Shown here one piece after another: positions 4,918-62,615 of a stretch of 64,000 bases of DNA. Origin of the DNA: a virus; the IMG/VR virus record IMGVR_UViG_3300045988_121635; one strand, given 5' to 3'. The notes below the pieces were generated by a model. It was given only the letters and a program-made list of their open reading frames with translations, ran no database searches and was not told where the DNA came from. The position numbers and the translations under genes were made by a program. Numbering within the stretch: the stretch's first letter is position 1; each line of letters begins with the position of its first letter.

Positions 4918-4944
4918 TTGTTAAACATAAGGCAGTAGTGGTGC

Positions 4945-5229
4945 GTGAGTATAGGTGCTGCCGTTAAAATATTTTATAAGATGAAAAAAGAAGAGATTCA
5001 AACTATTTTATACACAATCAAAGAAGGAGACAGTATTAAGATCAAAGTACAAGACAAAAGTGAAGAGATAAGACTGCGGGATCATGTAAGAAGAGTACAG
5101 AAATACGGATACAGGTTTTGTTTGTCTCATTTACATGATGGAATTTTCTATCTGGAGAAGTTGAAAGAAGGGGACAAGGATAAATACTATAGAGTAATAA
5201 ACAGAGGAAATGGAAAGACCGGAGTATAA
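4945..5229 (+). CDS. hypothetical protein
   Basis: ORF 94 aa. Confidence 0.4.
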   Translation: MSIGAAVKIFYKMKKEEIQTILYTIKEGDSIKIKVQDKSEEIRLRDHVRRVQKYGYRFCLSHLHDGIFYLEKLKEGDKDKYYRVINRGNGKTGV

Positions 5230-5837: not shown

Positions 5838-6118
5838 TGGATTTAAGGATGTTTATAGACCTATTTCAGGAGATTGAGGTAGAAAACTTGTTTAAAGCGT
5901 TAGATTTATGTATGGAATATGTAAGATTAGATTTACATGTGTTTAATGTAGGAGCTCATGTAACGTGTTCATACAGCAATGATCTTGAATCTCTTTCACA
6001 GGCAGAAGGTTGTAATGTGAATATGATAATAGAGGTACCCTACTTATTCGAAGCATTCATGGAATATGCTTCACCGGAAATGAAGTTGTATTATGAAAAA
6101 CTAACAGAGATAGTATAA
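5837..6118 (+). CDS. hypothetical protein
   Basis: ORF 93 aa. Confidence 0.45.
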   Translation: MDLRMFIDLFQEIEVENLFKALDLCMEYVRLDLHVFNVGAHVTCSYSNDLESLSQAEGCNVNMIIEVPYLFEAFMEYASPEMKLYYEKLTEIV

Positions 6119-6593: not shown

Positions 6594-6981
6594 ATTAAAT
6601 AAAGTGGTTAAGATCCTAAAAGAAAAAGGATTCGTAGTATATAGAAAGGGCGGGAAGGAGCCAGGTGTATTTTATGCCAAAGAAGGTGACAGCCGGATAG
6701 GATTCGTTTATCCAAACAACGGATATATATACGACAGGATAAAAATGTGGTCTTTTTCAAGGGTGTATAAACCACATAAGAAAACCGGATCTTCGTGTTT
6801 AATGTGTGTCAGCGACGAATTTACTATAGAAAATGCGATTAAGAGCATAGAAGATAGACTGTGGGTAAATTATATAAAAGACGGTAACAGAAAACGACCA
6901 GAAGAATATAAAAATATAAGAGAATTTGTTGGTAGCTTCACTAAATTCTACAGCTCTGTAGAATTAGTTGAAGTAAAATAG
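6571..6981 (+). CDS. hypothetical protein
   Basis: ORF 136 aa. Confidence 0.5.
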   Translation: MKMNVENKLNKVVKILKEKGFVVYRKGGKEPGVFYAKEGDSRIGFVYPNNGYIYDRIKMWSFSRVYKPHKKTGSSCLMCVSDEFTIENAIKSIEDRLWVNYIKDGNRKRPEEYKNIREFVGSFTKFYSSVELVEVK

Positions 6982-7002
6982 TTTTCCATGTAAGTTAGTT
7001 AC

Positions 7003-7038
7003 CGGCACTGGTCTGCGAAGATAGGTGCCGTTTTTTTT
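7003..7038 (+). terminator. intrinsic terminator: CGGCAC-(TGGTCT-GCGA-AGATAG)-GTGCCG + T8
   Basis: GC stem, GNRA loop, 8-T run read directly; same loop motif as 1357-1386. Confidence 0.75.
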
Positions 7039-7059
7039 ATTCAAGAAAGGAGGACAAAG

Positions 7060-7311
7060 ATGGAGAAAAGAGGCAAGAAGATGCCTTACGAGGTAGTCAT
7101 ACAGGAAAGAAAAAGAGTGGATTTGTACGGTAACGTAGTGTATTATATCCATTGGTTTGATAAATATGGGTACAATATCACAAACGAATGGAAATTCTGG
7201 AGCAAGGGTCCGAAAAAGAAATACGATAGAGTTAATCGTTATCTAACGGATAGTTGGTTGAAGGAATACTGTGGGAATAACGATTTAAAGATAAGGAGAA
7301 TAAAGGAATGA
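7060..7311 (+). CDS. hypothetical basic protein
   Basis: ORF 83 aa; ATGA overlap. Confidence 0.45.
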   Translation: MEKRGKKMPYEVVIQERKRVDLYGNVVYYIHWFDKYGYNITNEWKFWSKGPKKKYDRVNRYLTDSWLKEYCGNNDLKIRRIKE

Positions 7312-38263: not shown

Positions 38264-38568
38264 CAATAGAACAACTAAATTATTTATTAAGAAAAGAGCT
38301 TTATGCTATAAAAAAACATAAAGACAATATTGATAGAATCAAAAAAGAATACTTTGATTCCAATTATGGGTTAAAAGAAGGAGATAAGATCCGTATTTTA
38401 CACGAAACAGGAGATGAAATGATGGGCTTCTTGAAAAAAGTTGAAGTATGTGAAGACGGAGATCTGTACTTGACAATCCAAAAACAAAACGAAAAAGGTG
38501 ATAGAGGCAGAGGAAAATGGAATATGTATCTATCATCAAAATTAATTAAAATTGAAAAATGTGTATAA
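38260..38568 (+). CDS. hypothetical protein
   Basis: ORF 102 aa. Confidence 0.45.
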   Translation: MTIEQLNYLLRKELYAIKKHKDNIDRIKKEYFDSNYGLKEGDKIRILHETGDEMMGFLKKVEVCEDGDLYLTIQKQNEKGDRGRGKWNMYLSSKLIKIEKCV

Positions 38569-39751
38569 TGCCATGAGAGTGTTAAGTTTATTTGACGGAA
38601 TGTCATGTGGTCAAATAGCGTTAAAAGAAGTAGGGATCACACCTGAAGTATATTATGCATCAGAAATAGATAAGTTTGCTATTAAACAAACGCAATTAAA
38701 TTTCCCTAATACGATACAAGTAGGAGATGTAAGGGATTTGAATGTAGAAGATCTTGGACACATAGATCTTATTTTAGCCGGCAGCCCATGTACAGATATG
38801 TCCTTTTCTGGAAAAAGAAAAGGGTTGTCTACCGTAGAAGGAATAGAAATCAAATCACTTGATGAGTATCTTGAATTAAAAAAACAAGGATTTGAATTTG
38901 CCGGTCAGTCTTACTTATTCTGGGAGTTTATTCGTATTTTGAATGATGTAAGAAAAACTAATCCTGATGTGTTGTTTCTTCTTGAGAACGTTAAGATGGG
39001 AAAGAAATGGGAGCCGGTATTCGATGATGCTATAGGGTGTAAAGGCAATCATATTAATTCAGCACTTGTTTCCGCTCAAACCAGGAAACGTATTTATTGG
39101 ACTAATATTCAAGGCGGCATTATCCCTCAGCCTAAAGACGAGGGTTTGACCATAAGTGATATAGAGGAATATGAAGTAGATGAAAAATATTACTTATCTG
39201 AAAAAGTTTTAAACAATTTAGCTTTTCACTTGAAAAGAAATCACGACAAGGGGAATTATTATGGAGCTAATATTAAAACAAAAGATGAAAAATCCAATAC
39301 TGTTACCGTAAAGGGTAAATACACGTACGATCTTATTTGTGTAGCAATGAGAGGTAGGAATCCAGAAAAACCTACATGTAGAGAATCTGGTCTTAAAACA
39401 GTTCAGATGATTGAATTTAAAAACGATGGAAAATCCAATTGTCTCACAACAGTTCAGAAAGATAATCTTATTTTCCAAATACCAAGAGGATTTAACAAAG
39501 GTGGATTTCATGAAGATAAGACTCCAACATTATCTTGTAATTCATATGATAGAAACAATTTTATCATACAGAGAACATTACATGGCGATTTCAGAATAAG
39601 AAGATTAACCCCTACAGAGTGCTCCAGGTTACAGACTGTACCAGATTGGTATAAATGGGAATGCAGCGAAACCCAACAGTACAAGATGTTGGGAAACGGG
39701 TGGACTATTAAAGTTATTGAACATATACTTAAAAGAATAAAAGAATCATGA
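38552..39751 (+). CDS. DNA (cytosine-5)-methyltransferase (motif I LFDGMSCG, motif IV GSPCTDMS, motif VI ENV, C-terminal QTVPDWY...GNGWT)
   Basis: ordered C5-MTase motifs. Confidence 0.85.
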   Translation: MKNVYNAMRVLSLFDGMSCGQIALKEVGITPEVYYASEIDKFAIKQTQLNFPNTIQVGDVRDLNVEDLGHIDLILAGSPCTDMSFSGKRKGLSTVEGIEIKSLDEYLELKKQGFEFAGQSYLFWEFIRILNDVRKTNPDVLFLLENVKMGKKWEPVFDDAIGCKGNHINSALVSAQTRKRIYWTNIQGGIIPQPKDEGLTISDIEEYEVDEKYYLSEKVLNNLAFHLKRNHDKGNYYGANIKTKDEKSNTVTVKGKYTYDLICVAMRGRNPEKPTCRESGLKTVQMIEFKNDGKSNCLTTVQKDNLIFQIPRGFNKGGFHEDKTPTLSCNSYDRNNFIIQRTLHGDFRIRRLTPTECSRLQTVPDWYKWECSETQQYKMLGNGWTIKVIEHILKRIKES

Positions 39752-41915: not shown

Positions 41916-41962
41916 AAACTTATTTCATGTTCTGCTTATATAAGAAAAGATGGTAACTACAA

Positions 41963-42001
41963 CAATCCCCAACCATACAATAGGCGTACGGTTGGGGATT
42001 G
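41963..42001. terminator. bidirectional terminator at convergence of + and - gene blocks: CAATCCCCAACC-(15 nt)-GGTTGGGGATTG, 12-bp stem
   Basis: perfect 12-bp inverted repeat between convergent genes. Confidence 0.7.
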
Positions 42002-42004
42002 TTG

Positions 42005-42685
42005 TCATATCGTAAAATTAAGTGTTTTTTCTAATATCAGATATTCAGTATGAACTTTACTTCCGCCATCATCTATCAAGTCCAAATTAATATAAGCTGT
42101 ATATGATACATGATGATCACCAGGAGCAAGACGTTTCATTTCTGATAAGAACATAGAATTTAAACCTTGGCCAGACCATGATTCTGGATATGGCAAAGGT
42201 GTAAAGTCGGCGTCTGTACATCTTACAACCCAAGTAAGATTAGGATCTGCCCTAACTATTCTATCATGAGGTCCATCAATTACAAGATCTGGCATCTCAT
42301 ATTGGTAACTATCATAATTAAGGACAATAGGATCACCAAAGTTTACACCGTATATAGCAGCAGGTGGAGTAAAGCTTGTTATTAAAAAGGTTCTATTAAT
42401 CCTATTGGTTGTTCTTAGCGTAAACTCATCAGGTGCTATCACACTTACTCTAAATCCATAATAAGGAGAGGTTGTTAAAGCAATAGCAAGAACCACCGAA
42501 TCCTGTTCAAGCAATTCCTCTGTCGTATCAACCTGACTATCGATCTCTCGCCTATCTTCCATTGGAACACCGCCTTGGACACTTATGGAATCCAGCCGTT
42601 CTTTTTTAGACAGAAAGATAAATTGCCCGCCCTGTGGAATGGTGCCTACTTTCTTTCCTTCTACGATTACCCCCCCCCTATACAA
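42005..42685 (-). CDS. hypothetical protein, possibly tail fiber/receptor-binding by position; as sequenced starts with TTG followed by G9 tract
   Basis: ORF 226 aa; in-frame ATG only at codon ~41; ATG at 42705 in +1 frame. Confidence 0.45.
   Translation of the reverse strand: MYRGGVIVEGKKVGTIPQGGQFIFLSKKERLDSISVQGGVPMEDRREIDSQVDTTEELLEQDSVVLAIALTTSPYYGFRVSVIAPDEFTLRTTNRINRTFLITSFTPPAAIYGVNFGDPIVLNYDSYQYEMPDLVIDGPHDRIVRADPNLTWVVRCTDADFTPLPYPESWSGQGLNSMFLSEMKRLAPGDHHVSYTAYINLDLIDDGGSKVHTEYLILEKTLNFTI
42670..42678. repeat. C9/G9 homopolymeric tract at 5' end of 42005..42685 gene
   Basis: nine consecutive C on + strand; unique in the window. Confidence 0.95.
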
Positions 42686-42745
42686 TCGCTAACTATCTTA
42701 TACTCATATAGTTTAGCATTATTTTCAAATCTTCTTCTCATAATT

Positions 42746-43363
42746 TCATAAAATTAATTCGGTAAAGGGGCGGACATAACGTGGATTACTCCTTGTACTT
42801 GTATCCAAATGATCTCCTTGGATGTTTATATCATAATACCACGAATAGGTAAATTGTGTAGATTGAGTGGATGTCCACATTTTATTACTCATTATCGTAC
42901 CTCCTACCATTAAAAGACATTCGTTTATTTCATTAGCATACAATGATATCAAAAAAAACTCTCCGGCGCCACCTACATATCCATTTTGACCATTTTTAAA
43001 TAAATAGCTATTAGCTTTATTAAAAGCGTAATCTGTATTACTGGTATCATATTCAAGATACGCATTCTGATTTTCACGCCCCCAATAATCCTTTTTAATA
43101 GTTCCAATATGAGAACTATCTTGTGCAAATATATTGTCTATTTCTCCATCCTTACCCCAACGAAATGTGCCAATATATTCGGTGGCTATAACAAAACACA
43201 CTTTATCTACAAGAGCTATTCCATTGCATAGATCATTGGAATATCCTTTATTAGACCAATTTTCTTTTGTATATAATCCTCCATCTACATGTTGGATGTA
43301 TATGCCTTTATTGATTATAAGCGAGGGATTTACCCCCATCCCTATTTGAAATCTTCGTCTCAT
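42746..43363 (-). CDS. hypothetical protein, possibly fiber/receptor-binding by position (start chosen at ATG 43363; ORF open to 43504)
   Basis: ORF. Confidence 0.45.
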   Translation of the reverse strand: MRRRFQIGMGVNPSLIINKGIYIQHVDGGLYTKENWSNKGYSNDLCNGIALVDKVCFVIATEYIGTFRWGKDGEIDNIFAQDSSHIGTIKKDYWGRENQNAYLEYDTSNTDYAFNKANSYLFKNGQNGYVGGAGEFFLISLYANEINECLLMVGGTIMSNKMWTSTQSTQFTYSWYYDINIQGDHLDTSTRSNPRYVRPFTELIL

Positions 43364-43575: not shown

Positions 43576-46500
43576 CTATTTGTAGCTTGTATCCTCATCA
43601 CCTTCCGAATCAGGAGTGGCGCCGATGAAGAACATCATTGACTTGTTGTTCGTCTGCTGCCACCAATTATAAGCGCGCGCTACGTCTTCCGGCGTCTTGA
43701 TATTATACCATTGTTTGATAAACGTCTGTTTGGCGAGTTGCCTAAATAACTTAAACTCTCCTTTGTATGTGCCGGATGTTACTTTATCAAGTGAATAATT
43801 CCTAAGATCGGTAAGATCCTTCAGTTTCCGCCCCATAACAAACGGATCGTTAATGATATCTACCACGTTAAGCTCCATAATAAACGGCATCTGTGAAGCT
43901 ATTTCGTTTATGGTTCTGAATCCGACATAGGATCCGAATTGAGTAAGCCAACTTTCTTCGTTTTCATCATCATCACGCCATCCGGCAAGAAGCATAGATA
44001 CGGCCTGCATGATAAGGAACGTGCCGGCATAGACACTGAGACGTTTGAGATTGGTTTTTTCTACCTCATTCATATTGTCTTTATTTTCATTCCAGGCATC
44101 TATGATGTTTTTCATACCAGACTCGGAAGCCAGGCTAAATGTTTTGGCTATCATATTCTTTAACGTAATTGACAACCCTTCCTCTTCTTGCATTGTCTGG
44201 AAATTGAAGCCACGTCTTTTCCACAGACGTTGAGCCGCCAGCACCAACCATCCTCGGTGGGCGGTCATGAACCTGGCTATCCAGTTGCGCGATGCAGCAG
44301 TTCGGTTTTCTTCATTCAAAGATCCGTTACATATCTGCGACAAGCTACGGACTTGATTCCTGGTTATAGCCATCTGGGTTTCAACTTCCTCAACAGTAAC
44401 ACCTGATCCGGGCTTTACAACCACCTTCCCATCCACGACGTCTACCATACTCCATAAAGTACGATCTTTTAATGCGTTCCATTCTCTTTTTATGGTACTC
44501 TGTTCTTTATTGCGTTCTTTTTCCATCTTGAAATCTTGGAGCGTGTAGAACCGGCCTTTGTAATAACGAACATTGTCCATAGTAGCAATCATAACCTGCG
44601 GATCAAGAGGGTAGTTCAGGATTTCCATAAAAGCATACATAGGCGAACGCATTAAGGTCCTGGCCGCTCTATTGTATCCGGCACCATACATACGATTTCG
44701 GATATTGAATATCCCCATTCTCTCACCTATGACATATAATTTACTTTTCCTATCTATGTCTCCGGTTTCTGCTATACAAGATGGAGCAAGGCGTGAAAAT
44801 TCAGCCGATGCGTATTTAAGGGAGTCTTTGCTTATATACTGTCCTACGGCAGATTCCATGATGAGGTTGATATGACCTGTTAAGGCGCCGGTAGCTGCCA
44901 CAAACGGAGACAGTGCCAAGTTCATGACCGACATAAATCTTTCAACAGCCATCATAATTCTTGTAAGGTCTACCGTATATCCTCCGATGTTCACCGTAAG
45001 TCTTTTGGTGTTCATCCTAATGCCATAATAATGATCGTTGAAGAAGTCTCTGAACATCTGATATGCTTGGGTTGCTTCAGCCTTCTTACCGCCTTCAAAT
45101 TGCTTGTTCAGTAACATCTGTTCCAGTCCTTGAGCGAGCTCTATAGACTTCTGCTTTTCGTTGTATAACGATGACTGCATCATAAGCATCGAATAAGAGT
45201 AGCCAAAATCGTGAGATACATCATCTTGGTTCTCCAACTCATATATGTAGTATTTAGGTATAGACCTAAGTCTGTCTTCCGGGTCATACACTTCTCCTTG
45301 CCTGGTCTTACCATATAGAGAATCGTCTACTCTGTCCAGGCACAGATCTGATACAAAATTACGAACCGTATTTTTGAAGTTAATACCCAATCCTTCTATA
45401 CGTTCTATGTCTTGTTTTGATATCTGTGGAATAGCATACAGGTTCGGGCTCTGCTCTTTGTATAGATCAAGGGATTGTCTTTTTATTTCCTTGAGTTTTT
45501 GAATCATATTCCACTGCTCTACATTTTTAGTAGCAACCTCATTACCGTCAACATCATACTTGATGCCAAAGTCATTGAAATACGATTCATCACGATACAG
45601 GCTTTTCTTAGGCATTCGATGACCATACCCATGATCTTTTACATAATCAGGATTACGGCCGCTATTTTCGGCTTCAGATTCAGCCACCCATGCCCTTGCA
45701 GGATCGAAAGAAAGGTACGATATATCCATGCCATAATCTTGGGTGGATGTACCGTTTTGTACGTCCTTAACCATCTGCGCCACATCTATCTCACCTCGAC
45801 CGATTTTGTCGATCATAGCCGCATATCCAGTAGGCGCCATGCGTTTATAGTACGAAAAGACCTGGCTCCTGGCAAATTCATTAACAATAGCATTGGCCTC
45901 TTCTATGCCCGCTTTTATGTCAGCTTCTATACCCTCTTCTCTTGTATTATTTAAAAACAAGCTGGCCATCTTAGCATTAACAGCATTCCTAAAATCTCTA
46001 CCGTCTAATTCTTTGCTTATACCAAGCTTTTCTGACAGGTAGTTGGTTTCAGATACGGTAAACAGATATCGGTTATCAGCAGCCTTAAACAGCTTATCCC
46101 TTAAAGCCTGAATCCTTTTTGCTTTCTTCGCCGTAGTATGACGTTGTACGAACTTCCATTCCACTTCCTTGGAGTCAGCAAGAGCATTTAAATAAGACTG
46201 ATTTACTTCGTTTTCAGCCTTATTGCTTTTAGTAAGGTACTTATCAATATCTTCAAGACCCACCATCTTAGCATAATCTATCAAAATAGCGTAATCGGCT
46301 TCAATAGCTTCAGATGCGGCCCTAAAAGCATCTCTTTCGGATGAGGTAAATGTTGCTTCGTTAATTTCTCCGATATCAGCCACATCGCGATTGTTTCCGA
46401 TTATTTCCTTGATAATAGCCTTATTTTTTTCTATATCTTTCACAATAGAATCCACGTCAGTCGCATCTCTATCGCTTGTCGTAGAACTAATGATATCATG

Positions 46501-49500
46501 CGCCATTTTGAGATACGAAGCCTTGTTATTTGATTCGGTGCGCGCTGACTGTTCCGATTCTATATCATTCCAAAACCGATCGTTGAATGACAGGTGACCA
46601 CCCAACATAAGCGTTCTCAATGCAGCTTCCCCTCCTGATTCGCTCTGAATCGCTCTCAATTTTTGCAAAAACGATTCTGATACGGCATTAGTAACATTAT
46701 TTGATTCCTTTCTCCAAACTTCATTTATAGCTTGTATTTCTTTGGCCATCTTAAGTTGGTCGCCGGTTTTTTCCACTCTCCTGGTTCCTACATATATGTA
46801 TTCTGAAGCTGCTTCTTTACGTTGTTTACGAAGCAGTCCTTCTTCTTCGTAATTGCTGCTTTTAAAATAGGCAACTTCATCAAAATTACCACCGCTATCA
46901 ATAAAAGGCTGCCTCAGTATCCGTTTTTGCCTGGATAGAGCATTAAGGTATTCTTTGGTTGTTTGAGAAACTGGATGCCCTAATTCTTCTTCAGCCTTTT
47001 TGTATATGGATTCCATTCTTGTGGCATAACTTTCACTAAATTCCAGTTCCGAATTTTCAGCATCCCACTTTTCCATCTGTTCCGTATAGATCTTTTCCTG
47101 CTCGATGGTAAAAATATCGGTATTAACCCTATCAGACGATGGTTTGAATTTAGCGTTTTCAGTAACCGTATTTCCATCCTTGTCAACTACTTCTCTTTTA
47201 AATACGTAATTACGGTTATTGTCAACCACATCACCAATTTCTTCTTCTGATATCTCTATGTTCATGGCAGTCGCAAACGCTCGCATCTGCGCCAGCTTCT
47301 TATTACGATCGTATTTAGCCATATCAAGAGCACTACGAAGGTAATTAGAAGTTTTGCCGTCTACTTTCTGAAGCAGTTTTTCAAATTCAGATTTGTTAAA
47401 ACCATGCTTTTTCGCATATGCCAGGAAATCGGATATGGCGGGCTGGGCATTCACCATCGCATTGTAATTGTCTTTGGCAATCATAGCTCCAAGAGCGTTA
47501 TTGAACGGACTGGAAGAATGCTCTAATATACCAAACCACCTACTTATCCAAGAAACATCGTGTTGAACCTTGTCGAAAAATTCTTTTACTCTCTTTACCT
47601 TATCTGCCGGCACATGAAGTTCGTTCATTAACTTATCAAGCAACGTACTTTCATCAAGGTCTTGTACTGATTTAATATCAGACTGAATACCATTGATGTC
47701 GGCAATGACGGTGTTGATCCTATTTGTATAATCCTGCTTTTCACGTTCATCAAATTCGGTACTTCTGTTACGGATATATCCTCGAAGATCGTTCATGATC
47801 GGAAGAACCTGATTGTTGATAATATCTACGTTCTTTCGATCATTGGTGTTGAAGTGAAGCTTGCCGTCTTTGGTATCACCATGAAGGATGGTGTTCACCA
47901 CATTGCTTAAGTATCTGACCTGAGCTTCGGCTGTGGAGATCATGCTGTTCATGGCAGCCGCCATCTCATTCTTGTCTATTTCGGTCTCTACCTTATTTAT
48001 CTTATCTTCTATGGTCTTAAGCTGCGCAAGGGTCATAGACGTAGTTACAGCCCTATCAGAGCTTATCTGACGTAAGTCTCTTAATGTTTTTCTTAGTGAT
48101 CTGATCTTAGACTCAAGAAACTTGTTCTTGTTCATAGAAGAAAGGGAGTATAATGTAAAGTCATTATCCTTTAACAGAGAGGTGTCAAATCCTTTATCTA
48201 TGTCAGTAATGGCAAGATCACGAATGTTTTTAATAACGTTATTCAAATCTTGTCTTTGGGTTGATAAAGCTGATTTAAGCCAGCTTACGATTCCAGAGAA
48301 AAGCTGCCGGACGCGCCCCAGGAAGGAGGTGGGCTCTACCGGCGCCTGTGCTGTGCCGGCCTGCATCTCCCTGGCGAGGATCTTTCCAAGAATTTCTCTC
48401 CTAACAGCATTATCAAGCTCAGCTCCTTCATACGCTTTACCGTATGTATTATAATACTGACCTGCATACTGGTTCCACTCTTCCGTACCTTCTACATCTT
48501 GCAGAACAGCCTCAACAGCATTCTGATCTCTGTATGCCTCTACAAGAAAGTGGGCTGTTTCTTCTACTAAATCAGATAAAGTAGCATCTTCACCAACTGC
48601 TATTACGTTATTAGCAATATCCGCCAATGCCTTAGCAGAAGGTTCGTGCCCGTATTTGGTTTGGTACTTCTCTATATAGTCGGTCATACCTATGACACTA
48701 ACGCCAAGCGTTTTCAGTATCTCGACAATAGAATTTCGTTGGTCACGTTCCTGCCTGCTATAATCTGATACGATCTTAGCTTTAGTATCAGCATAAAGAT
48801 CGTTATCTTCTAATATGAATGAAACTACAAGCGCATCAAAATGATCGTACTTGGCGTCCAATTCATTGTATCTTCCTGACTTAAGATCGTTCTTTATCTG
48901 TTCCCTACTAATCCTTTCCGTTCCTCCGGTGGCGAGTCTCATAGTTACCTTACTGTTATCCAACGAGCTTATGGTTATCATACCTTGGTCGTTCATGGAA
49001 ACATCGGAACCAAAATGATTACGGAGCTCGGTGTATGATAAGGCTGAATTGAAAAGTCTAATTTGTCCTGTATGACCTTCTCCTGTAAGATAATAGCTTC
49101 TTGTTTCAGGATCGAATATCTTAGATCCGGACAAAAGACCTTTCTTTATAAGGTAGTTAATTATACCACCTTTTGTTGATAAAGAAGTAGAAGCAGAAGC
49201 GGTCATGACCGGTATAAAAGATTTGGGATTATTAAGAACATACTTTCCAGCTTTGTAAGTAATGTCTGCCACGCCATCCACGGTAGATTCTTGAACGGTG
49301 CCTGATAAGAACCCTATTCTGATATCATTCCCGCCAGAGCGAAGAGCTTCTCCGTAATCTTCAAATAATTGACTACGATCGTTCATGAAAAACAAACGAG
49401 GCTCTCCAGTCTGATACGTTACACCCACAGGATTAGAATCTGTTTCTGGTAGCTCTTCTGGGCTAAATATCTTAAGACCGTCTTTTATAACCATATAATT

Positions 49501-50022
49501 AACACCCTTATCCTGTACCACAGATACGGGAGTGAAGTCCGAAAATATAGCATCTTGTAAATACTGCCCGGCGTCTATTCCTGGTTCTTCCGGTACGGAA
49601 ATACTTGATGGGATCATAGCATCCACCAACATAATATTATCACCCAGATCTTGGCTATAGAATCCGAAGCCTGATTCTTGAATCCCATAAGTTGCATCTG
49701 ATTTTGATACAAGAACAGGATTACTCATCTTAGAAGCCTTATCCAGCACCCTTTCTCTATAGGCTTCTGGGATAAGATCGATGTTGGATTTTACCTTATT
49801 ATAAGCCTGTTTGTTGATAGGCACTCTCTTTCTCCAGTCGCCAAAAGCCTTTAAGAACTTGTTGGAAAATACGGTTTTAAAAACAGTAGTAGCCCGCTCC
49901 CTGTTCTCCATAAGAGGAACAGATGCTATTTTATCAAACAACATAGACCTGTCCCCTGATCTGGTAGAGACAGAAACAACTTTCTTTTTATTATCTCTTT
50001 TAATAATACACGTTGATACCAT
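43576..50022 (-). CDS. giant 2148-aa protein of unknown function, largely alpha-helical/coiled-coil with hydrophobic segments near C-terminus; candidate virion/ejection-associated protein
   Basis: single uninterrupted 6.4-kb ORF; no enzymatic motif recognised by eye. Confidence 0.7.
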   Translation of the reverse strand: MVSTCIIKRDNKKKVVSVSTRSGDRSMLFDKIASVPLMENRERATTVFKTVFSNKFLKAFGDWRKRVPINKQAYNKVKSNIDLIPEAYRERVLDKASKMSNPVLVSKSDATYGIQESGFGFYSQDLGDNIMLVDAMIPSSISVPEEPGIDAGQYLQDAIFSDFTPVSVVQDKGVNYMVIKDGLKIFSPEELPETDSNPVGVTYQTGEPRLFFMNDRSQLFEDYGEALRSGGNDIRIGFLSGTVQESTVDGVADITYKAGKYVLNNPKSFIPVMTASASTSLSTKGGIINYLIKKGLLSGSKIFDPETRSYYLTGEGHTGQIRLFNSALSYTELRNHFGSDVSMNDQGMITISSLDNSKVTMRLATGGTERISREQIKNDLKSGRYNELDAKYDHFDALVVSFILEDNDLYADTKAKIVSDYSRQERDQRNSIVEILKTLGVSVIGMTDYIEKYQTKYGHEPSAKALADIANNVIAVGEDATLSDLVEETAHFLVEAYRDQNAVEAVLQDVEGTEEWNQYAGQYYNTYGKAYEGAELDNAVRREILGKILAREMQAGTAQAPVEPTSFLGRVRQLFSGIVSWLKSALSTQRQDLNNVIKNIRDLAITDIDKGFDTSLLKDNDFTLYSLSSMNKNKFLESKIRSLRKTLRDLRQISSDRAVTTSMTLAQLKTIEDKINKVETEIDKNEMAAAMNSMISTAEAQVRYLSNVVNTILHGDTKDGKLHFNTNDRKNVDIINNQVLPIMNDLRGYIRNRSTEFDEREKQDYTNRINTVIADINGIQSDIKSVQDLDESTLLDKLMNELHVPADKVKRVKEFFDKVQHDVSWISRWFGILEHSSSPFNNALGAMIAKDNYNAMVNAQPAISDFLAYAKKHGFNKSEFEKLLQKVDGKTSNYLRSALDMAKYDRNKKLAQMRAFATAMNIEISEEEIGDVVDNNRNYVFKREVVDKDGNTVTENAKFKPSSDRVNTDIFTIEQEKIYTEQMEKWDAENSELEFSESYATRMESIYKKAEEELGHPVSQTTKEYLNALSRQKRILRQPFIDSGGNFDEVAYFKSSNYEEEGLLRKQRKEAASEYIYVGTRRVEKTGDQLKMAKEIQAINEVWRKESNNVTNAVSESFLQKLRAIQSESGGEAALRTLMLGGHLSFNDRFWNDIESEQSARTESNNKASYLKMAHDIISSTTSDRDATDVDSIVKDIEKNKAIIKEIIGNNRDVADIGEINEATFTSSERDAFRAASEAIEADYAILIDYAKMVGLEDIDKYLTKSNKAENEVNQSYLNALADSKEVEWKFVQRHTTAKKAKRIQALRDKLFKAADNRYLFTVSETNYLSEKLGISKELDGRDFRNAVNAKMASLFLNNTREEGIEADIKAGIEEANAIVNEFARSQVFSYYKRMAPTGYAAMIDKIGRGEIDVAQMVKDVQNGTSTQDYGMDISYLSFDPARAWVAESEAENSGRNPDYVKDHGYGHRMPKKSLYRDESYFNDFGIKYDVDGNEVATKNVEQWNMIQKLKEIKRQSLDLYKEQSPNLYAIPQISKQDIERIEGLGINFKNTVRNFVSDLCLDRVDDSLYGKTRQGEVYDPEDRLRSIPKYYIYELENQDDVSHDFGYSYSMLMMQSSLYNEKQKSIELAQGLEQMLLNKQFEGGKKAEATQAYQMFRDFFNDHYYGIRMNTKRLTVNIGGYTVDLTRIMMAVERFMSVMNLALSPFVAATGALTGHINLIMESAVGQYISKDSLKYASAEFSRLAPSCIAETGDIDRKSKLYVIGERMGIFNIRNRMYGAGYNRAARTLMRSPMYAFMEILNYPLDPQVMIATMDNVRYYKGRFYTLQDFKMEKERNKEQSTIKREWNALKDRTLWSMVDVVDGKVVVKPGSGVTVEEVETQMAITRNQVRSLSQICNGSLNEENRTAASRNWIARFMTAHRGWLVLAAQRLWKRRGFNFQTMQEEEGLSITLKNMIAKTFSLASESGMKNIIDAWNENKDNMNEVEKTNLKRLSVYAGTFLIMQAVSMLLAGWRDDDENEESWLTQFGSYVGFRTINEIASQMPFIMELNVVDIINDPFVMGRKLKDLTDLRNYSLDKVTSGTYKGEFKLFRQLAKQTFIKQWYNIKTPEDVARAYNWWQQTNNKSMMFFIGATPDSEGDEDTSYK

Positions 50023-51688: not shown

Positions 51689-51964
51689 TCAATAATTTAA
51701 AATACCGTTTTTACCAATATGCTTCTTTTCTTCTTCAGTAGGCCATTCTTTCTTGAACTTACCGTGCCACGTTCCAGGAACTACCACCACTTCGCCTCCC
51801 TTACTATATTCAATAGCGGCACATTCAGAACAAAGAGGCTTGCCTTCATATCCCTTTAGCGACTTATCGTAAATACGATTCTTACAAGGTCTTATAAGAG
51901 CCCAGTAATATGATGTGGCTGTATTATCTATACAGCCACATTTTGAACATACAAACAAACTCAT
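51689..51964 (-). CDS. hypothetical Zn-ribbon protein (CSKCG...CSEC)
   Basis: ORF 91 aa. Confidence 0.45.
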   Translation of the reverse strand: MSLFVCSKCGCIDNTATSYYWALIRPCKNRIYDKSLKGYEGKPLCSECAAIEYSKGGEVVVVPGTWHGKFKKEWPTEEEKKHIGKNGILNY

Positions 51965-52824
51965 CCCGCAATCTCCCAGTCATTAGACATAATATCATGT
52001 TCGGTTGGATTCCAATTTGATGCTACTTTTTGACCTGTATCTACCATCAATATATTTACGTCAAATATACAGATATACTTTTTACCCCAATCGATTCTTT
52101 TTATCTTACTACCTAATTTAAGCCGTTCTAAAGCCTGTTCGAATGTCATGCCACGACGAGGCAGTTTGAGATACTTTTTAAGTCTGTCGGCAGCTTCATT
52201 TGGTGTATGGCCATCGTATTCGAAAGCGGTCTCTCTTTCAGGAACATCAAACAAATCCCAGTATTTGCTTTCATAGTGATTAGATACCTGACCGGTAGGT
52301 AGGATCGCCATCACAATAAACCAATCATCAGAACCGAAGCATTTTTCTCCGTCGCTGTGTCTCCTTGATTTGCAAACTTCAACCTGTCCGCTTCTGGCTA
52401 ATAGATTAAAGAAGGCAGCGTTATACAACATGCGATACCGATACAATTCATTGAAAGTGTGGTATCCGTCAGAGACTTCTCCCACGTCTACAGGCTTCTT
52501 GTTTTGAATACTACCCAAAATCTTCTCTACATAGAGCTGTATTTTATACAGACCCATTTCGGTGTGGCCGTATTTGTTCAAGATCTTATTGACATCGTAT
52601 TGTATATTAAAATCTTTTTCAAATTCTACTTCAGGATGATTAGGATAGAAGTAATCTACTGATGCTTCTAACACTGACTTTACGTGTTCTATTATCCTCG
52701 CAACATCATCATGTTTAAAAAAATGCTTAAATCTTTCAACGAATTTAATATCTTCGTTGATTGCTGATTCGAACTCTTCTTTTGTCATCACTCTAATTAC
52801 ATCTTTAAAATCCTTTAATTCCAT
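51961..52824 (-). CDS. hypothetical protein
   Basis: ORF 287 aa. Confidence 0.55.
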   Translation of the reverse strand: MELKDFKDVIRVMTKEEFESAINEDIKFVERFKHFFKHDDVARIIEHVKSVLEASVDYFYPNHPEVEFEKDFNIQYDVNKILNKYGHTEMGLYKIQLYVEKILGSIQNKKPVDVGEVSDGYHTFNELYRYRMLYNAAFFNLLARSGQVEVCKSRRHSDGEKCFGSDDWFIVMAILPTGQVSNHYESKYWDLFDVPERETAFEYDGHTPNEAADRLKKYLKLPRRGMTFEQALERLKLGSKIKRIDWGKKYICIFDVNILMVDTGQKVASNWNPTEHDIMSNDWEIAG

Positions 52825-57525: not shown

Positions 57526-58410
57526 TTAAGCAAACTTGCCATATTTTAGAAACACATTTTTGAGTTTTCCTTTTATACCATTTAAGGTCACTTCATATCC
57601 GGAGCCTGTCATGTATATGGTTTGTTGATTGATTCTATCACCAGAATACTTGTCTATGAAATAAGACCTATACACTCCATACCCTTTAACTACAACATTA
57701 CTATATAGCTCCCATTTGCCAAGACCGTTCCTAAACATGAATTTAGCTTCTTCAAGGAATGAGCGAAGATTCTTTTCAGCAATAATAACACCATTTTGCT
57801 CTAACTTCTTTGCAATATCACGAATCAGCCACATATTGTTATGGTCTACTTTCCTAAAAGACTCGGCAAATTCTACATCGGGCTTGTGTTCTTCTATTGT
57901 TTTCAAAGCTTGTTGCTTCTCTGCCTCTGCCTGCGACTTTTCGGCTATAGCTCTCTGAGCAGCTTCATACTGATCAGCCCAGGCTCTTGCTGCATCTGCC
58001 GGATTAGAAAAGTCAGGGACCAAAATTCCCTTTCCACCGGAACTTGTTTTATATTCTCCTGTTTTACGAATAGAAGGAAGAACCTCAGATGTTACCCATT
58101 TCTTAAATCTCTTAGCAGACTCTAATTTTGAAGATAATATAAGAGAATATAAACCAGATTCATTAATTATTCTTATACTATCTATATATCTGGTTTTCAA
58201 TATAGATCGTTTTACGCCCCATTGATTATCAGATACTTGCAAAAGCATAGAATCATCATCATCTACATGTCTTTTTACCGCATCTTTAGCATTTATATAT
58301 CCAAGAGATTTAGCCACATCTGACGCCACAAACCAAACATCTCCTTTTGGATCTACAATAATTCTAAGCTCTCCAAAATCCGAACTTTCAAAAACAGAAA
58401 CTTTATCCAT
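57526..58410 (-). CDS. Bro-N domain antirepressor-like protein (FESSDFGELRIIVDPKGDVWFVASDVAKSLGY)
   Basis: Bro-N N-terminal signature. Confidence 0.7.
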   Translation of the reverse strand: MDKVSVFESSDFGELRIIVDPKGDVWFVASDVAKSLGYINAKDAVKRHVDDDDSMLLQVSDNQWGVKRSILKTRYIDSIRIINESGLYSLILSSKLESAKRFKKWVTSEVLPSIRKTGEYKTSSGGKGILVPDFSNPADAARAWADQYEAAQRAIAEKSQAEAEKQQALKTIEEHKPDVEFAESFRKVDHNNMWLIRDIAKKLEQNGVIIAEKNLRSFLEEAKFMFRNGLGKWELYSNVVVKGYGVYRSYFIDKYSGDRINQQTIYMTGSGYEVTLNGIKGKLKNVFLKYGKFA

Positions 58411-62084: not shown

Positions 62085-62615
62085 CTATAAAATCGACTTA
62101 TACAATGACGGATCCCAAACTCCTTCTATATAAATCTCTGGAAAACTCAAACTGCCATCACGAAGAGTGGTAACCTTCAAACTGGGAATGTTAAAAACAG
62201 TGCTAACATCACTAAACTCACCATTCAACTTAATAGCATTTCCACTATTATCAGCTTCATAATAATAATAACAATAATTTTCATTAATGTTTGGATCATA
62301 TTCGTACCAATATGTTAGATCCTGTATATGATTTTCTATATTACCAATTTTATTTTCGCCTAATATAAAAATACCATTATTGCTATGATTATAAACCATA
62401 GAATCATAACCACCATAATTCCAATTACTATTAAACATTATGTAACTAACATCAGAATCATGATCTTTTAATACAGGTCCTATATGTATATGAATTTTAT
62501 TAAACTGACATACATAAGGTCTTTTCCTTCCAAGCCTTTTTATATCTTCATTGGATAACTTATTATAACATCCTCCCACGAAATTATCCGCAGCATTAAA
62601 AAATCTCCTTCTCAT
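62085..62615 (-). CDS. hypothetical protein (MRRRFFNAADN..., Tyr/Asn-rich), start at ATG 62615
   Basis: ORF; AAGGAG upstream. Confidence 0.55.
   Translation of the reverse strand: MRRRFFNAADNFVGGCYNKLSNEDIKRLGRKRPYVCQFNKIHIHIGPVLKDHDSDVSYIMFNSNWNYGGYDSMVYNHSNNGIFILGENKIGNIENHIQDLTYWYEYDPNINENYCYYYYEADNSGNAIKLNGEFSDVSTVFNIPSLKVTTLRDGSLSFPEIYIEGVWDPSLYKSIL

Follow-up and report, generated by a model that had tools for sequence, protein, structure and literature searches.

Does a run of nine guanines near the start of a viral gene mark a gene that can be switched on and off, a gene whose loss is tolerated, or an error in reading a homopolymer? The question is raised by the virus record IMGVR_UViG_3300045988_121635 of IMG/VR, of which a single stretch of 64,000 nucleotides (hereafter ‘the window’) was analysed. 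On its minus strand, at 42670..42678, nine G residues (C9 on the plus strand) occupy codons 22–24 (Gly-Gly-Gly) of a gene whose full-length product would comprise 245 amino acids. An earlier reading, made from the letters of the DNA and here called the sequence-only reading, had proposed this tract as a slipped-strand ON/OFF switch at the 5′ end of a putative fibre gene, with a homopolymer sequencing error as the fallback. Comparison with relatives of the gene indicates that the tract is probably a slipped-strand contingency switch, found in the window in its OFF (G9) state.

Reading frames and start codon

As sequenced, the beginning of the gene and its body lie in different frames. A start codon ATG is found at 42739..42741 on the minus strand, 5 nt past the stop of the upstream gene (TTA TGA, followed by AATT). 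The frame that it sets opens ATG AGA AGA AGA TTT GAA AAT, continues AAT GCT AAA CTA TAT GAG and ends TAT AAG ATA GTT AGC GAT TGT ATA GGG GGG GGG TAA, ahead of TCG TAG AAG G; this leader frame (42667..42741, minus strand) is translated over 24 codons as MRRRFENNAKLYEYKIVSDCIGGG and then meets the TAA at 42669-42667. The gene body (VIVEGKKVG...NFTI; 42005..42670, minus strand; 221 codons and the stop TGA at 42007-42005) lies in the frame that is reached with G10. One added G joins the 24-codon leader frame to the 221-codon body, giving a protein of 245 amino acids in which the run spans codons 22–24 and the first base of codon 25 (Val), and in which the peptide across the tract reads ...IVSDCIGGGVIVEGK.... 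A tract of G10 thus specifies 245 amino acids, G9 specifies 24 and G8 specifies 44, whilst G7 or G13 would also be ON; the window as sequenced carries the OFF allele. The sequence-only reading had counted exactly nine G residues on the coding strand (42678..42670) and had correctly read the codons from TAT AAG to the stop directly after the tract, and it was right that the long open reading frame (ORF) of 226 amino acids, running from a TTG at 42685 to 42005, lies in the frame reached by one extra G. Its start codon has had to be moved. The sequence at that point is TATATGAGTATAAGATAG, from which two bases had been dropped, and the ATG at 42705..42707 (minus strand) is out of frame and stops after four codons (ATG AGT ATA AGA TAG). 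The fusion of an ATG frame to the long ORF by one more G consequently stands, but as a 245-amino-acid product that begins at 42741 and not at 42705.

That the ATG at 42741 is the true start is established by crAssE-Sib (OR575929.1, spelled ‘csAssE-Sib’ in the GenBank record), a human-gut phage genome of 151 kb and the sole GenBank phage with similar DNA, since its syntenic gene shares the same opening, with an identical ATG AGA AGA AGA TTT GAA AAT (MRRRFEN). Across 91 loci the 63-nt leader is without indels, and it shows synonymous changes of Arg, Asn, Lys, Ser, Cys and Glu codons in the ATG frame. An AlphaFold2 (AF2) model of the 245-amino-acid protein was obtained with a predicted local distance difference test score (pLDDT) of 92 and a predicted template modelling score (pTM) of 0.64; it is all-beta, and its small N-terminal sandwich precedes further sandwiches built of long strands. 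In this model residues 12–17 form β-strand 1 of the N-terminal domain and the Gly-Gly-Gly encoded by the tract forms the loop that follows. Residues Y12, Y14, S18, N19, C20, G22 and G23 are invariant in one alignment of homologues (A1) and nearly invariant (at least 90%) in a larger one (A2), the homologue alignments reaching down to ~20% identity. As modelled, the fold includes the leader as an integral part, and a product started at the TTG would be structurally incomplete because the leader encodes β-strand 1. The TTG at 42683..42685 (minus strand), which gene callers use in OFF alleles to open the 226-amino-acid ORF, and an internal ATG were both rejected as real starts, since their products lack β-strand 1 and the invariant SNC-GG motif. 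Reassignment of the stop codon and suppressor tRNAs were also considered and rejected: no tRNAs were found in the window, the stop concerned is a TAA, and under the standard code the long ORFs nearby remain open.

Tract length and selection among relatives

Within the window, the G9 run is the only G/C homopolymer of at least six. Dinucleotide shuffles of the window contained 0.12 G9 runs per window, and because 9 of 100 shuffles had at least one, a single G9 is only mildly unlikely; its significance comes from conservation in relatives. A peptide-guided scan of IMG/VR yielded 78 loci of the same gene at 80–100% amino acid identity, 76 of them with a complete start. All 78 keep the G tract at the same place, and among the 76 the longest G run is G8 in 17, G9 in 28, G10 in 23, G11 in 1 and G5–G7 (short and mostly interrupted) in 7; GGGGGTGGGG, GGGGGGAGGG, GGGGGAGGGG and GGGGGGGAGG are examples of interrupted tracts. 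A scan of the DNA with exact flanks likewise gave matches whose lengths differ by one or two bases. In a family of ~40% identity (P0123 type, 17 loci, with a different upstream context), G9 is found in nine loci, G10 in five and G11 in one, together with two interrupted tracts that are both in frame, and a homologue of 56% identity carries G10. Runs from G6 to G12 (pure runs G8–G12) were found in 29 independent human-gut assemblies in ENA, several of them at 28–154x coverage and some contigs at 150–154x (SPAdes). Public data in which the locus is present include ERZ824978 and ERZ826146 (at ~150x), SRR31800294 and ERR13984331. The combined comparison thus comprises 122 assemblies, 93 IMG/VR loci with a complete gene start (76 + 17) and the 29 ENA assemblies, and G9 is the commonest pure length (37 of the 93 IMG/VR loci).

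The sequence 3′ of the tract differs between subgroups (TAATCG, TGTTATG, TGTATG, ATTTATG). More distant homologues encode this Gly-Gly motif by GGT GGG GGT or GGT GGA TCT, and GGG accounts for 13% of the Gly codons in the window; given the rarity of GGG and the mixed codons of the distant homologues, the G homopolymer is a maintained codon choice and not a by-product of the protein sequence. On a neighbour-joining tree of 73 tips (tree length 1.41 substitutions per site) at least 32 changes of tract length are needed, as against 37.5 ± 2.2 when the lengths are dealt randomly to the tips, and by this comparison tract length is almost uncorrelated with phylogeny.

Two loci have peculiarities of their own. 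In one (L040) the tract is G10 yet the gene is out of frame (around 4925-4945); the A4 run of the leader (GAA AAT) is A3 there, which is either a second-site single-base deletion or an assembly error. The other (L072, IMGVR_UViG_3300045988_109117) is a viral contig of 100 kb that ends exactly inside the tract, with G11 at its terminus (position 1-11), and this might reflect the behaviour of the assembler when reads disagree on run length or coverage drops.

Selection was considered at the level of the frame and of the gene body. Runs of at least eight are in frame in 31 of 84 loci (37%), as against eight of nine for the short or interrupted, ‘locked’ tracts (Fisher p = 0.0037). Whatever the state of the tract, 77 of 78 loci have an open body ORF, the exception (L087) having a single TTA-to-TAA change. 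That one nonsense mutation compares with ~8 expected under neutrality (~200 substitution events, with 4.2% of single-base changes creating stops; P of at most one ~0.002). Elsewhere in the 663-nt body no frameshifting indels were found, all length variants being multiples of three. In a database of 5.8 billion proteins most calls of the family are 245 amino acids long and begin at the conserved ATG, in clusters of up to 2677 members, whilst calls of 226/227, 221 and 185 amino acids are what gene finders make of OFF alleles. The ratio of non-synonymous to synonymous divergence (dN/dS) is 0.95 over 66 loci, with variable sites distributed 79/48/67 over the three codon positions, and since it falls to ~0.4 in more divergent pairs the protein is constrained in the long run. 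Within the 245-amino-acid protein the variable patches lie at about residues 85-105, 145-150, 170-182 and 195-210. When the C-terminus of the giant structural gene nearby was used as the control, dN/dS in the same loci was 0.50 for the switchable gene and 0.048 for the giant gene. These comparisons indicate that the ON frame is the selected frame, and that the constraint on it is weak (dN/dS 0.4–0.95). The locus thereby shows four of the features by which contingency loci are recognized, namely a 5′ coding tract of at least ~7, a frame switch by ±1, polymorphism without other frameshifts and an ORF maintained by selection. The switch put forward by the sequence-only reading is in this respect supported: lengths of G8–G12 occur at the same site, gene callers report the 245-amino-acid ORF from thousands of assemblies, locked alleles are in frame and OFF bodies are intact.

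Competing explanations

According to the proposed mechanism, slipped-strand mispairing during DNA replication would change the length of the G run by single bases. Lengths of G10 (or G7, G13) would keep the frame and give the full protein, G9 would bring the TAA into frame right after the tract and G8 would yield the peptide of 44 amino acids, so that the locus would act as a heritable and reversible ON/OFF switch. The slippage would use the replisome of the host, because the epsilon group of crAss-like phages, to which the window is assigned below, is reported to be without its own DNA polymerase (PMC11054128). We infer frequent and reversible changes of length inside a single phage population, with fluctuating selection as the force that maintains the switch. 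Switching would create subpopulations of phage with and without the protein, much as is described for the polyG receptor-binding genes of Campylobacter phages. OFF alleles may be expressed at a low level, through a –1 ribosomal slip (G GGG GGG GGG UAA) or transcriptional stuttering, and the data can be accounted for without either.

The simplest objection is that the true length is always G10 and that the G8, G9 and G11 calls, including that of the window, are errors of sequencing or assembly. Homopolymers are prone to error, the end of one contig falls exactly in the tract, and some source data sets are old viromes, perhaps produced on platforms with a homopolymer bias. Consensus lengths nevertheless differ among SPAdes assemblies at 28–154x, and loci with identical 3-kb flanks (three clusters) have identical tract lengths in five of five pairs, so that the calling of lengths is reproducible. 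Runs of A6 and A7 in the giant gene, and two of A6 within the body of the switchable gene, served as controls, among them those at 46772, 46430 and 42607; they are invariant across 16–61 loci, whereas the neighbouring gene's T8 run and its G5 run, which is easily sequenced, do vary in the same relatives. Point-interrupted alleles that are in frame exist, and long and truncated protein calls are both abundant across Logan and ENA assemblies. Miscalling is unlikely to have caused the polymorphism, because high-coverage assemblies vary and the G5 varies while the A6 and A7 runs never do; the fallback offered by the sequence-only reading is improbable on the same grounds, with variation seen at ~150x and at the neighbouring G5, and as a complete explanation artefact has only the slimmest of chances. 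The pattern across loci is that of a hypermutable contingency locus rather than of a one-off sequencing error. If the variation is real, G9 might still be the functional genotype, with the full protein produced from a fixed G9 by programmed –1 ribosomal frameshifting or transcriptional slippage. G9 is indeed the commonest pure length, a stop codon stands directly after the run in the G9 frame, and a –1 slip on the run re-pairs perfectly and yields exactly the G10 protein. The length is not fixed, however, but ranges from G8 to G12, and the 3′ context varies between subgroups, so that no single recoding configuration is conserved; the interrupted alleles are already in frame and need no recoding. 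No stimulatory RNA structure was found at the site (folding z = +0.93), nor any Rfam match at gathering score, and known transcriptional slippage sites are mostly A/T runs, which makes programmed recoding very unlikely.

A more serious alternative is that the tract is a mutational hot spot in a dispensable and nearly neutral accessory gene, where the OFF state would be a tolerated loss of function and switching would not be selected. This would accord with an ON fraction close to one-third among the long tracts, with the dN/dS of 0.95 and the spread of variable sites over all codon positions, and with the adjacent gene, in which breaks at G5/G6 and T7/T9 runs are likewise frequent and whose state is uncorrelated with that of the switchable gene. 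A slippery run in such a gene should, however, vanish by synonymous interruption, whereas a pure G9–G10 persists at 100%, 56% and 40% identity. OFF alleles are moreover free of secondary decay, with one nonsense mutation instead of ~8 and no other frameshifts, the stabilized alleles are in frame in eight of nine cases, and dN/dS drops in the more divergent pairs; we regard a purely neutral hot spot as unlikely. Some points do weigh against a selected switch all the same. The in-frame share of long tracts is about what is expected if the frame is neutral, and a dN/dS near 1 among close relatives is compatible with a weakly selected, dispensable gene that contains a mutational hot spot. Several tracts are described for the precedent in Campylobacter phages, as against one long G/C run in the window. 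Heterogeneity within populations and reversibility are suggested from consensus assemblies, and stutter during polymerase chain reaction (PCR), multiple displacement amplification (MDA) or Illumina sequencing at G9–G10 may have contributed to some of the consensus lengths.

The protein, its genomic setting and its precedents

If the tract is a slipped-strand contingency switch, it is of interest to know what it switches. The protein has no Pfam match (E up to 10) and no PHROGs match, no match to it was found by tblastn against GenBank phages, and a BFVD search matches only its own family. No similarity to fibre, spike or receptor-binding proteins was found by sequence or by fold, the best matches being transglutaminase, FN3 and complement-type immunoglobulin (Ig)-like domains; the protein is accordingly described as an Ig-like, all-beta model, and the designation ‘fibre’ is unsupported. 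A HMMER search against 1.8 billion representatives found that the N-terminal ~60 residues are common to many otherwise different proteins, one of which (P0145) has two copies of this domain. Residues 178-230 have remote matches to repeats in giant surface proteins of Bacteroidota type (CarboxypepD_reg, Big, SprB, T9SS tail), which is only a hint of an adhesin-like domain. In other crAss-like contigs the homologues adjoin genes for CrAss_Ring_2 and BACON-domain proteins. The anchor-like N-terminal domain, the exchangeable Ig-like C-terminal domains, the rapid evolution and the position at the end of the virion-gene block lead us to infer that the protein is an accessory of the virion surface or of host interaction. 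The sequence-only reading had placed a fibre gene next to a second, fibre-like one at the distal end of the late block; the gene does close the minus-strand block, but nothing in the searches marks it or its neighbour as a fibre gene.

The window (G+C 37.6%) matches crAssE-Sib with 97.6% DNA identity over 868 nt, a match that covers the upstream gene and ends just inside the leader of the switchable gene. Both share the gene order of giant structural protein, 205-amino-acid gene, cassette gene, hairpin and convergent methylase block. By identity and synteny the window comes from an epsilon crAss-like human-gut phage, a close relative of crAssE-Sib, which has been described as an epsilon crAss-like phage (PMC11054128). 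The phage origin of the tract is also seen in the homologues that adjoin CrAss_Ring_2 genes and in the IMG/VR contigs of 78–158 kb. A diversity-generating retroelement aimed at a receptor-binding protein is further reported from the epsilon group, and one is annotated in crAssE-Sib; the paper on crAssE-Sib discusses a possible temperate-like lifestyle and makes no mention of homopolymers or frameshifts (PMC11054128). A scan of GTDB genomes found no relative, and therefore gave no clue to the host.

Around the switchable gene, the giant neighbour (43576-50022, minus strand, 2148 amino acids) has as its only match PHROG 37651, a virion structural protein (E = 1e-76), has no sequence match in the PDB and is under strong purifying selection. 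At the stop codon of the switchable gene, between the convergent gene blocks, lies a hairpin with a perfect 21-bp stem (41959..42005, minus strand; –35.1 kcal/mol, z = –7.25), whose arms are largely kept in crAssE-Sib despite the different gene body there; it is likely to be a bidirectional terminator and the 3′ boundary of an exchangeable cassette. A match of this hairpin to the Rfam family rli38, a Listeria small RNA (38.4 bits, below the gathering score of 49; E = 0.0034), was taken as a chance match to a strong hairpin. Further away, a protein of 287 amino acids (51964-52824, minus strand) combines a WDGH domain (E = 1.6e-36) with a Thoeris anti-defence Tad2-like domain (E = 9.5e-11) and is a candidate anti-defence gene. 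A Bro-N/ANT antirepressor-type protein (57529-58410, minus strand) and a C-5 cytosine DNA methylase in the convergent block (38552-39748, plus strand) both agree with the annotation of crAssE-Sib.

The gene upstream (42746..43363, minus strand; 205 amino acids, MRRRFQIGMGV...) has the same type of MRRRF leader and is ON in the window. It starts at the ATG at 43363, the mechanical ORF list giving a 252-amino-acid ORF from a TTG. It contains a G5 run at codons 9–11 (43333..43337, minus strand), where the frame of relatives is broken by G4, G6 or G9 and kept by G5, G8 or G10, and a T8 run (42951..42958, minus strand; A8 on the plus strand), where relatives have T7 or T9 and a truncation at 137 or 144 amino acids. 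It is broken in ~45% of related loci, without a significant correlation between its state and that of the G9 gene (p = 0.13). Its match to Lcl_C (E = 1) is likewise not significant, and its AF2 structure (pLDDT 32) was discarded as unusable. A third MRRRF gene is found at 62085-62615 (minus strand; 176 amino acids: ATGAGAAGGAGATTT; MRRRFFNAADNFVGGCYNK...); it lacks a G tract and matched no family. Three occurrences of the leader pattern in the window compare with 0.1 expected.

The leader appears to be shared between different gene bodies. In crAssE-Sib the shared MRRRFEN is followed by an unrelated protein of 150 amino acids, and because a different body is carried there, the body behind the leader is an exchangeable cassette. 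In two loci (L046 and L056) the leader of the upstream gene is fused to the body of the switchable gene and the upstream gene is deleted, and one protein (P0128) has identical first 60 residues and an unrelated C-terminus. By these comparisons the region of the MRRRF leader and the G tract acts like a joint for recombination, seen at 42720-42741 (minus strand) in the window, at 6849-7298 in locus L001 and around 4930-5000 in L046 and L056, and seen also in P0128. Synonymous divergence is lower in the cassette than in the adjacent giant gene (0.047 and 0.110, respectively), which suggests a recent spread of the cassette. Further tracts are known from other crAss-like sequences: a distant crAss-like contig (Logan SRR33454295) has three at the starts of genes within 6.7 kb, G11, G10 and G9 at 2894-2904, 6063-6072 and 6656-6664, one of them directly after an ATG (ATG GGG GGG GGG GTA ATA...), and crAssE-Sib has a G11 at 1257-1267, 18 nt upstream of another MRRRF gene and within a mini-ORF (ATG-G11-AATAA). 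PolyG switches may therefore be widespread in the crAss-like group. Given the three MRRRF genes of the window, a further one in crAssE-Sib and the many types of cassette in other sequences, one can tentatively imagine, as a possibility on the doubtful side, a wider crAss-like variation system in which a family of MRRRF accessory genes would combine independent 5′ homopolymer switches with use of the leader and tract as a joint for exchange of bodies.

The closest precedent is found in the Fletchervirus phages of Campylobacter, which, in the passages of PMC12823448 and PMC11959909 that refer to Sorensen et al. 2021, have hypermutable polyG tracts in receptor-binding-protein genes. In its passage on them, a 2025 review calls the case exceptional (PMC11959909), and in a 2025 Nature paper it is listed among three kinds of variation in phage host range (PMC12823448). 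As in Fletchervirus, a coding G homopolymer is carried by a phage and its length would toggle a non-essential gene, probably one for host interaction, so as to give subpopulations. Unlike Fletchervirus, a Campylobacter myovirus, the window belongs to an epsilon crAss-like, podovirus-type gut phage with a host from a different phylum; its protein has no detectable homology to the Fletchervirus receptor-binding proteins, the locus is known here from sequence comparison, and in the 64-kb window one long run and the shorter variable G run of the neighbour are found. Bacterial contingency loci, such as those of Campylobacter jejuni, Neisseria and Haemophilus, likewise have a 5′ coding G/C homopolymer, ON and OFF frames, an intact OFF ORF and locked alleles, and the modal length of polyG/C tracts in C. 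jejuni is nine, as here (PMC3401435); the present locus differs in being carried by a virus and not by a cell. It resembles diversity-generating retroelements and the invertible fibre segments of Mu and P1 in its localized variation of an accessory or host-recognition gene at the end of a virion module, but would work by ON/OFF replication slippage, with no reverse transcriptase, template repeat or invertase involved at the locus. Programmed –1 frameshift or slippage sites (the tail assembly chaperone G/GT, dnaX) also have an early slippery homopolymer and two frames; there the sequence is fixed and two functional products are made in a set ratio, whereas here the length is polymorphic, the short product has 24 amino acids and in-frame alleles exist. 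In the presumed hosts, the Bacteroidales, the phase variation known is mainly based on invertases and not on repeats. Full-text literature searches for repeat-based phase variation of phage genes found a demonstration only for Campylobacter phages, and those for polyG or homopolymer switches in crAss-like phages found none mentioned. The mechanism would thus be that of known polyG loci, and what is new is the phage lineage, the host group and the protein.

Explanations of how crAss-like phages and gut Bacteroidales coexist stably have until now centred on phase variation of host capsules and surface proteins, and variation on the side of the phage has been attributed to diversity-generating retroelements. 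The locus described here is abundant and conserved: in public gut assemblies its protein clusters run to hundreds or thousands of members. If the switch is confirmed, a phage from the most abundant group in the human gut would use slippage for bet-hedging, and would do so with a fast-evolving accessory protein that is likely to matter for interaction with the host. It would also carry a warning for annotation, in that the ‘hypothetical proteins’ of 226, 221 and 185 amino acids would be OFF-state fragments of a single gene of 245 amino acids. Should the wider system prove true, combinatorial ON/OFF switching and shuffling of surface, Ig-like or lectin-like modules would form a phage-side counterpart to the phase variation of Bacteroidales capsules, and would contribute to the long-term coexistence of phage and host.

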